Positions 1,963-2,709 of a stretch of DNA of 21,542 bases are shown piece after piece. The notes below the pieces were generated by a model, which was given only the letters and a program-made list of their open reading frames with translations, did not search any database and was not told the DNA's origin. The stretch is from an uncultured archaeon (lineage in GTDB: Archaea; Asgardarchaeota; Lokiarchaeia; Sigyniarchaeales; Promethearchaeaceae), in contig CAYRPF010000059.1 of NCBI GenBank assembly GCA_964426185.1, positions 1-21,542 of the forward strand, read 5' to 3'. Numbering within the stretch: the stretch's first letter is position 1; each line of letters begins with the position of its first letter. The position numbers were made by a program, and so were the translations under genes.

Positions 1963-2709
1963 ATGTTTCGTGTGGTCAAAGATAAACTTACTCAAATCAT
2001 TAAATTTCTATCGGAAGGAATGGAAGAACTTTCTGAATCGTTGGAAGCAACTGTAAGTGCTATATCTGCTTTCCAAAAATCGTTATCTAAAGTTAAAAAG
2101 GATTTAAAGCGAGTTAAAGAGATCAAAGTTAAAGAAGGTACTACTGCAGTTGCTGTAGAAAAGCCATCTCCCATACTTTCCCGCTCTAAAGGTAAAGACT
2201 TTGCCAAAGAAAAAGCCGCTTCTTTATTATTTAATATGCTTGCTGGAGGTAAAGCAGAGGGAACAGCCAATTCAACAGTTGGAGCCGCACCCTCATCTGG
2301 AACGACATCTGCACCTCCCAGTGGACCACCAAAAGGACCCCCAAAGGCAGGACCTCCCAGTGGACCACCAAAAGGACCCCCAAAGGCAGGACCTCCTGGA
2401 AGTGCTCCAAAACCTCCTAAAATGCCTCCAACTTCGTCAGGTGGTTTACCTTCACCACCTAAAATGCCTCCCGCTGGGGCACCAAAAGCACCACCATCTG
2501 GACCGTCAGGTGGTTTACCTTCACCACCTAAAATGCCTCCCACTGGGGCACCAAAAGCACCACCATCTGGACCGCCAAGTACACCTGCTTCTCCATCTGC
2601 ATCAGCTCCAGCAACTGCTACAGCAGCGTCAGGTCCAGGCTTAGGTGGCTTAAGAGAAGAAATGTTGAAGGAATTGGATCGCTTGAAGAAGATTATGCGC
2701 GGGACTTAA
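1963..2709 (+). CDS. Hypothetical protein: N-terminal coiled coil, long Pro/Gly/Ser-rich linker, C-terminal amphipathic helix ending RLKKI (WH2- or MIM1-like)
   Basis: 248-aa ORF with ATG start, an AT-rich upstream region and in-frame internal repeats. Heptad-like helix at aa ~1-57, PP-rich region at aa ~115-210, terminal GLGGLREEMLKELDRLKKIMRGT. Confidence 0.85.
   Translation: MFRVVKDKLTQIIKFLSEGMEELSESLEATVSAISAFQKSLSKVKKDLKRVKEIKVKEGTTAVAVEKPSPILSRSKGKDFAKEKAASLLFNMLAGGKAEGTANSTVGAAPSSGTTSAPPSGPPKGPPKAGPPSGPPKGPPKAGPPGSAPKPPKMPPTSSGGLPSPPKMPPAGAPKAPPSGPSGGLPSPPKMPPTGAPKAPPSGPPSTPASPSASAPATATAASGPGLGGLREEMLKELDRLKKIMRGT
2313..2396 (+). repeat. Perfect 39-bp tandem repeat x2 (plus 6 bp) encoding PPSGPPKGPPKAG
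   Basis: acctcccagtggaccaccaaaaggacccccaaaggcagg occurs at 2313-2351 and 2352-2390, followed by acctcc. Confidence 0.95.
2436..2573 (+). repeat. 69-bp tandem repeat x2 encoding SGGLPSPPKMPP(A/T)GAPKAPPSGP
   Basis: Units at 2436-2504 and 2505-2573 differ by one substitution (gct/act). Confidence 0.95.

Follow-up and report, generated by a model that had tools for sequence, protein, structure and literature searches.

An Asgard-wide protein family presenting a conserved C-terminal amphipathic helix on a proline-rich tether, with the Vps4 MIT domain as a possible partner

No known organisms are more closely related to eukaryotes than Asgard archaea, whose ESCRT and actin systems offer the best view of the origin of eukaryotic membrane remodelling. 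Yeast Vfa1 and IST1 bind the MIT domain of Vps4, the ESCRT ATPase, without belonging to ESCRT-III; both carry a C-terminal MIT-interacting helix, and IST1 also possesses a Pro-rich element. Here we describe a protein of 248 residues from an uncultured archaeon of the Lokiarchaeia, encoded by an open reading frame (ORF) that starts with ATG and occupies, together with its stop codon, positions 1963-2709 of the forward strand of contig CAYRPF010000059.1 (assembly GCA_964426185.1), the whole stretch of 21,542 nucleotides analysed here being referred to as the window. The protein is real, Asgard-wide and undescribed, and its conserved functional end is a C-terminal amphipathic helix carried on a variable Pro-rich tether. 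We tentatively propose, with a probability of about 0.4, that this end is a tethered docking helix whose most likely partner would be the MIT domain of Vps4, because the helix shares both its position (the very end of the chain, preceded by a flexible linker) and its residue pattern with the MIM1-like tails of the ESCRT-III proteins of the same organism. For this reason the protein is called the docking-helix protein in what follows.

The described systems that come closest to this plan share different parts of it. The MIM1-bearing tails of ESCRT-III proteins of the Vps2/24/46 class, those of Asgard archaea among them (Lu et al. 2020, PMC7240154), are alike in that the chain ends in an amphipathic helix preceded by a flexible linker containing Pro, and the core [LM]xxE[LI]x[KR]L[KR] is common to the docking-helix protein, to the four tails of the organism itself and to 12 tails from other Asgard genomes. 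The family differs from ESCRT-III proteins in that it lacks their Snf7 core (no match to PF03357 in Pfam), in the length of the spacer (about 115 residues vs. about 10-20) and in the extra conserved residues L230, L235, I244 and M245, and the likeness to the tails is statistically weak. With Vfa1 and IST1 the family has the concept in common, that is, a non-polymer protein presenting a C-terminal helix, whereas the N-terminal parts are unrelated and a relationship in sequence is not to be expected. The WH2 proteins (WASP/WAVE, WIP and MIM/MTSS1) resemble the family in the amphipathic helix followed by L-K-K, in the Pro-rich region and in the oligomerising or membrane-binding N-terminus, and in one GTDB family, f3, the gene adjoins an actin paralogue; they differ in that the docking-helix proteins have no PF02205 match, no linker, no conserved second K or T/V residue, and no WH1, EVH1, SHD, I-BAR or CA element. 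Lastly, Ena/VASP proteins are similar in their Pro-rich centre and short oligomerising helix; however, the family shows neither EVH1 nor detectable G-/F-actin-binding blocks (Pfam), and its coil is N-terminal, whereas that of Ena/VASP is C-terminal.

The homologues of the protein and their near-invariant C-terminal block place it far beyond what chance would produce. A word-indexed search retrieved 48 homologues of 177-267 residues (E values down to 8e-59), none of them annotated, and those from named organisms are all Asgard (Promethearchaeota/Lokiarchaeia, Odin or Hermod). When 400 Asgard genomes were considered, one per species, a full-length profile matched 272 of them and a profile of the 34 C-terminal columns matched 339, among them 83 of the 90 high-quality ones, with rarely more than one match in a genome; the window's own genome (3.26 Mb, 92% complete) likewise holds a single copy. 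The scan of named genomes yielded 80 loci, among which are those of Candidatus Lokiarchaeum ossiferum B35 and Promethearchaeum syntrophicum MK-D1, both belonging to the GTDB family of the window. The remaining ones are labelled as Asgard metagenome-assembled genomes (MAGs), except for one contig (L083, DATKTW010000083.1) that is filed as a "Nanopelagicaceae bacterium" MAG; it carries a complete Asgard cluster (c3, docking-helix gene, PIG-L, actin and a winged-helix-turn-helix gene, on which see below) and was probably mis-binned. Searches of protein atlases returned only Asgard hypothetical clusters, and a homology search with region 205-248 found no longer proteins sharing the C-terminus of the window protein. 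The family is without annotation and no description of it was found in the literature searched; this includes a paper according to which polyproline motifs are common in Asgard archaea (PMC8410842), where the family is not described.

Four blocks are conserved in the alignment of the homologues, that is, the N-terminal helix, AKTAAASTLFxLLSGG, LPPAPKLPP together with AFAKRP in the Pro-rich region, and the C-terminus, the last one being near-invariant (GGGLSSLRDEMLxELNRLKKIMRGE). Among the close homologues (alignment A1), L230, E233, M234, E237 and K242 are invariant; in a deeper alignment (A2) the invariant residues are L230, M234, E237, R240 and L241, and E233, L235, L238 and K242 are retained in at least 90% of the sequences. 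The AlphaFold2 monomer model, built on a 49-sequence alignment, has a long N-terminal helix and a short one at residues 77-93 (predicted local distance difference test score, pLDDT, about 72), followed by disorder from about residue 94 to 227 and by a helix at 228-246 (pLDDT about 90) that is unbroken through LKKIM; its predicted template modelling score (pTM) is 0.24. These data bear out the three-part architecture of the original prediction, in which an oligomerising-type helix, a Pro-rich spacer and a terminal amphipathic helix follow each other, as a real arrangement conserved across Asgard archaea, and the translation, identical to the one described there, confirms that the Pro-rich tract is built of PP doublets. 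The N-terminal region gave weak coiled-coil-type similarities only (Pfam, and a PDB search with the N-terminal 100 residues), and its helix probably oligomerises. The spacer embeds two in-frame tandem duplications (39 bp x 2.2, 100% identity, positions 2313-2396; 69 bp x 2.0, 98% identity, positions 2435-2574), which imply a recent change in the length of the tether; since they are near-perfect, spacer length appears to change quickly. Pro and Gly codons also account for the high G+C content of the gene region (0.48-0.56, where the background is about 0.30).

Four Snf7-family ORFs are located elsewhere in the window's genome, and their tails (...DLEQEIKKLKEKNKI, ...DLEAEIKKLKQQRD, ...DLEKELARLRKKRQG and ...TLKKEIEKLKKELDM) all fit ...L-x-x-E-[IL]-x-[KR]-L-[KR]..., a pattern found also in 12 ESCRT-III tails from the L. 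ossiferum, MK-D1, f3, Odin-like and f21 genomes. One of these 12 ends in ...AELEKELNRLKSDE, and the stretch ELNRLK is common to it and to the f3 form of the docking-helix family. MIM1-like character has been attributed in print to Asgard ESCRT-III tails, which were also modelled on the Vps4 MIT domain (PMC7240154). They bear a Glu at the position of the Arg of eukaryotic MIM1, and the same is true for the family, whose E237 is invariant. In the AlphaFold2 model the protein closes, like those with a MIM1, with an amphipathic helix that follows a flexible linker, and the predicted continuity of the helix also resembles MIM1. The pattern [LM]..E[LI].[KR]L[KR], placed at most 10 residues from the C-terminus and composed after the sequences had been seen, occurs in exactly five of the genome's 6002 ORFs (of at least 60 residues), namely the four ESCRT-III proteins and the docking-helix protein. 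A hidden Markov model (HMM) of the 12 tails, trained without any sequence from the window's genome, ranked the organism's own ESCRT-III ORFs first to fourth and the docking-helix protein sixth among 6002 ORFs, and of 20000 composition-matched shuffles of the last 20 residues of the protein, 40 scored as high (p 0.002). The comparison of the two tail alignments with hhalign gave a P value of 8e-4. Moreover, the window's genome encodes an MIT-domain protein (an ORF of 434 residues, at G000:C14, around 29818-30009). Overall, the similarity to the ESCRT-III tails is suggestive and not significant, and on these residue patterns the end helix looks more like the organism's own Vps4-binding ESCRT-III tails than like an actin-binding WH2. 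The sole other ORF of the genome that fits a loosened form of the tail pattern (203 residues, G000:C29:27945-28556(+)) has the C-terminus …GEIEKIRTLKKL.

Several observations weigh against a partnership with Vps4. The match of the protein to the HMM of the tails is short and weak (8.5 bits, E 0.99), the hhalign comparison reached a probability of only 24.6% over 19 columns, and the five-ORF pattern was a post hoc one. In the reverse test, no ESCRT-III tail was recovered at a significant level by the family HMM, one of them ranking third (E 1.4) and three falling outside the top 14, and a PDB profile search with A2 retrieved no CHMP/Vps2 chain. The docking helix departs from the canonical eukaryotic MIM1 consensus (D/E)xxLxxRLxxL(K/R), as in the register M234-x-x-E237-L238-x-x-L241-K242 a Glu stands for the MIM1 Arg and a Met for the first Leu, and the four extra conserved residues named above have no counterpart in the ESCRT-III tails. 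As for genome organization, the gene was in no case part of a cluster of ESCRT genes; in one genome (G117) its distance to ESCRT-III genes is about 10 kb, an arrangement that does not represent an ESCRT cluster because unrelated genes (HerA, an RNA methyltransferase, TauE, PfkB, ProRS and LarA) lie in between. The conserved downstream neighbour in f3 is an actin paralogue and not an ESCRT gene, and some lineages retain ESCRT-III without the motif, as in family f24, where the motif was found in none of seven genomes vs. Snf7 in four of four. Almost all genomes possess Snf7 (263 of 268), also in lineages without the motif, and the phyletic profile therefore does not discriminate.

If the docking helix does bind the MIT domain of Vps4, the protein might be regarded as a cytoplasmic, Asgard-specific "tethered ligand". 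Its N-terminal helix, in place of which other Asgard classes have a transmembrane (TM) anchor plus a coiled coil, would oligomerise; the long and fast-evolving Pro-rich spacer would serve as the tether, and the near-invariant C-terminal amphipathic helix would be the functional end docking into a conserved partner. The protein might thus recruit, concentrate or regulate Vps4 at a scaffold or membrane, without being itself a subunit of ESCRT-III. As regards the anchored forms, the same C-terminal motif terminates, in other Asgard classes, proteins with unrelated N-termini, most of which possess a single TM segment at the N-terminus, with basic residues after it, and then a coiled coil and a Pro-rich tract; the position of these basic residues indicates that the C-terminus of such proteins is cytoplasmic. 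None of them matched a Pfam family, and their conserved gene neighbourhood is a housekeeping one, including ribose-5-phosphate isomerase (RpiA), a PIN/KH ATPase and a tRNA-intron endonuclease. At one locus (L148, G066:C1:1329677-1332177) there are two tandem paralogues of 556-566 residues, each with a large multi-TM N-terminal domain and, at the other end, the Pro-rich tract and the C-terminal motif of the family.

Table 1. Positions in the window of the docking-helix gene and of the elements of its product (aa, amino acids; AF2, AlphaFold2).
Feature	Positions	Strand	Evidence or remark
Whole ORF, 248 aa	1963..2709	+	Member of an Asgard-only family; one copy in own genome
N-terminal long helix, aa 2-58; presumed coiled-coil/oligomerisation element	1966..2136	+	AF2, pLDDT 85-96
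Short conserved helix, aa 77-93, AASLLFNMLAGG block; L89 and L93 invariant	2191..2241	+	Alignment, AF2
Pro-rich disordered spacer, aa ~110-225, PP doublets; length and repeats differ among homologues	2290..2637	+	Translation, alignment, AF2
LPSPPKMPP copy 1, aa 162-170, equivalent to the family-conserved LPPAPKLPP block	2446..2472	+	P169 invariant; P166 and P170 in at least 90%
LPSPPKMPP copy 2, aa 185-193, product of the 69-bp duplication	2515..2541	+	Translation, DNA repeat analysis
C-terminal amphipathic docking helix (putative), aa 228-246, GLREEMLKELDRLKKIMRG	2644..2700	+	AF2, alignments; core [LM]xxE[LI]x[KR]L[KR] common to ESCRT-III tails

The original prediction considered the protein as a candidate WASP/VASP-like actin regulator ending in a WH2 motif, and a function of this type has to be weighed against the one proposed above. 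According to it, the terminal helix would bind monomeric actin, or the actin paralogue adjacent to the gene in f3, being WH2-like in function and not by ancestry, and the oligomerised or anchored protein would deliver or sequester monomers, like WASP, VASP or MIM/MTSS1, with no homology to them. We consider this unlikely. It is true that the spacing L230/M234/L235...L241-K-K is roughly WH2-like, that the succession of coil, Pro-rich tract and C-terminal helix recalls WAVE and MTSS1, and that Asgard archaea possess profilins, gelsolins and WH2-like motifs embedded in gelsolins (PMC9433394); in the literature searched, the Asgard WH2-like motifs known are only those inside gelsolins (PMC9433394; 10.1101/2025.11.30.690169). 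However, the Pfam model PF02205, the only WH2 profile used (hmmscan, E<=10), matched neither the whole protein nor its last 34 residues nor any of 17 homologous C-termini, and the PDB profile search with A2 returned GCN4-type coiled coils only and no WH2 chain. The layout of WH2, with a short helix, a non-helical linker and an extended LKK(T/V), is also at odds with the monomer model, where the helix is continuous and no Gly/Pro linker exists; the missing linker had already been remarked upon in the original prediction. Conservation of the LKK across Asgard homologues, by which that prediction was to be judged, does not hold, since in A2 the second K varies (K/S/E/A) and the next residue is I/L/F/Y and not T/V. 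Indeed, the invariant E237 and R240 are not WH2 features and recur in the C-terminal tails of the organism's ESCRT-III proteins. Nor can the protein be filed as WASP/VASP-like, as the EVH1, WH1, SHD, I-BAR and acidic CA elements were not found (Pfam) and its end, ...LKKIMRGT, contains no acidic or Trp element. The assignment to WH2/WASP/VASP is not supported by the membership tests run, while the architecture had been correctly described.

What the broader idea of an actin regulator has gained is an actin-family gene directly downstream in one GTDB family, f3, a large Lokiarchaeial family. The ORFs of 20 loci were clustered and the recurrent neighbours annotated, and the order in f3 turned out to be: c3 (about 88 residues, opposite strand), the docking-helix gene, an optional PIG-L deacetylase, an actin (PF00022, E 1e-90) and a winged-helix-like protein of 112-130 residues. 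At 71 of the 80 named species-level loci, all of them f3, an actin-family gene lies downstream on the same strand, with its start about 0.1-3.4 kb beyond the matched region (about 0.1-0.3 kb where neither PIG-L nor other ORFs intervene). This synteny is new evidence in favour of a link with actin, of limited scope. Indeed, the adjoining actin (371-375 residues; L033:8001-10513 and 70 other loci, e.g., L070, L099 and L127) is the second-best PF00022 paralogue of each genome (about 295 bits), as distinct from the canonical Lokiactin (433-441 bits; G000:C29:7984-9093 in the window's genome). The linkage is a feature of f3 alone, being absent in the window's genome, L. ossiferum, MK-D1, the Odin-like genome and all the membrane-anchored forms; in the window's genome the docking-helix gene, the actin paralogue (G000:C35:27709-28818) and c3 stand on three different contigs, and in the window's family the neighbours of the gene are an adenylosuccinate synthase gene and a restriction/methylase-like gene of 912 residues. 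Gene order is in any case weak evidence of function here, because the anchored forms show equally conserved synteny with plainly unrelated housekeeping genes such as those for RpiA and the tRNA endonuclease. In a closed f3 genome, about 3 kb separate an ESCRT-III gene from an actin-family gene of divergent sequence (G188:C1:623795-628314; PF00022, E 9e-43).

A 2025 preprint (10.1101/2025.11.30.690169) reports a Lokiactin co-immunoprecipitation and the proteome of L. ossiferum. We mapped the L. ossiferum orthologue (CP104013.1, about 729.4-730.2 kb) to locus tag GNAMCCOK_00620 through the gene order anchored on molecular weights, with exact agreement for 00613 (50.04 kDa) and 00629 (37.04 kDa) and consistent values for 00638, 00647, 00673 and 00722. 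GNAMCCOK_00620 is not among the rows of Supplementary Table 2 that were consulted, which span co-immunoprecipitation log2 values from about +5 to below -0.5 and approximately the top two-thirds of the proteome, and the orthologue is therefore, as far as those rows go, not among the proteins enriched with Lokiactin. This is weak negative evidence against a WH2-like function: the set of rows is truncated, the protein is of low complexity and the antibody is specific to canonical actin.

It is similarly improbable, in our opinion, that the helix docks on a different conserved Asgard partner, such as c3 or a trafficking factor of the GTPase/longin type. The protein c3 (e.g., L033:7444-7707(-), and G000:C109:6500-6760 in the window's genome) is Asgard-specific and represents the most deeply and widely conserved neighbour of the soluble form, being found in f3, f1 (L042), f7, f19, f21 and the Odin-like f27. 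It is also predicted to adopt a confident fold (AlphaFold2 pLDDT 92, pTM 0.82) for which no clear structural match was obtained (best Foldseek E value 0.16; best VIA Z score 4.1). Nevertheless, c3 is adjacent to the gene neither in the window's genome nor beside the membrane-anchored forms, and the search for longer proteins with the window's C-terminus, described above, also speaks against a partner of this kind.

A more ambitious version of the actin connection, which we deem distinctly unlikely, would make the protein an archaeal functional forerunner of WH2/WASP/MIM-type factors; as a tether, oligomeric or anchored in the membrane, it would capture actin or its paralogue with the terminal helix while the Pro-rich arm would engage profilin; in a variant, the protein would bridge Vps4/ESCRT and the actin paralogue.

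There is very little probability that the terminal helix is a structural element packing on the N-terminal helix in an intra- or interchain bundle, with the Pro-rich region as a loop. The high pLDDT (about 90) of an isolated helix of 19 residues in a monomer model and the amphipathic nature of all the helices would fit such a packing; however, the pTM given above lends no support to a packed fold, and the motif is kept on unrelated N-termini, in both the single-TM and the multi-TM forms, a conservation that points instead to an external conserved partner. That the helix targets a membrane is scarcely credible, since, although its C-terminal position and amphipathicity recall the MinD and FtsA-type anchors, which use a C-terminal amphipathic helix, it is highly charged, includes the acidic E233 and E237, and is retained in forms that are already TM-anchored.

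Some of the neighbouring genes deserve mention in their own right. The 912-residue ORF next to the docking-helix gene (window:2909-5647(-)) contains the sequence DLIIGNPPY, a motif characteristic of N6-adenine methyltransferases and of restriction-modification enzymes of type IIG, and its place as a neighbour of the gene is conserved in L. ossiferum, MK-D1 and one closed genome belonging to the window's genus. In L. ossiferum (G137), two giant ORFs of 3420 and 9599 residues (712448-722710 and 752843-781642) are placed within about 25 kb of the orthologue. In f3, the actin paralogue is always trailed by the winged-helix-like protein of 112-130 residues, and this pairing of an actin-like gene with a gene for a small, DNA-binding-like protein recalls ParM/ParR. 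The identification of this protein as a profilin was rejected on its sequence; it gave no PDB or Pfam match, it appears winged-helix-like by eye, and no homologue of it was found in the window's genome.

Returning to the tethered docking helix, we are dealing with a family that is present in most of the sampled Asgard genomes, usually in single copy and with a strongly conserved end motif, and that is nevertheless undescribed in the literature searched. If the helix is a ligand of the MIT domain, this would be the first Vps4 adaptor outside ESCRT-III in archaea, and the soluble and anchored forms would indicate where Vps4 is deployed. If, instead, the helix binds actin or its paralogue, the protein would represent the first stand-alone WH2-like factor outside eukaryotes, and, should it be a forerunner of the WH2/WASP/MIM-type factors, an Asgard membrane-proximal actin assembly factor would have predated eukaryotes.

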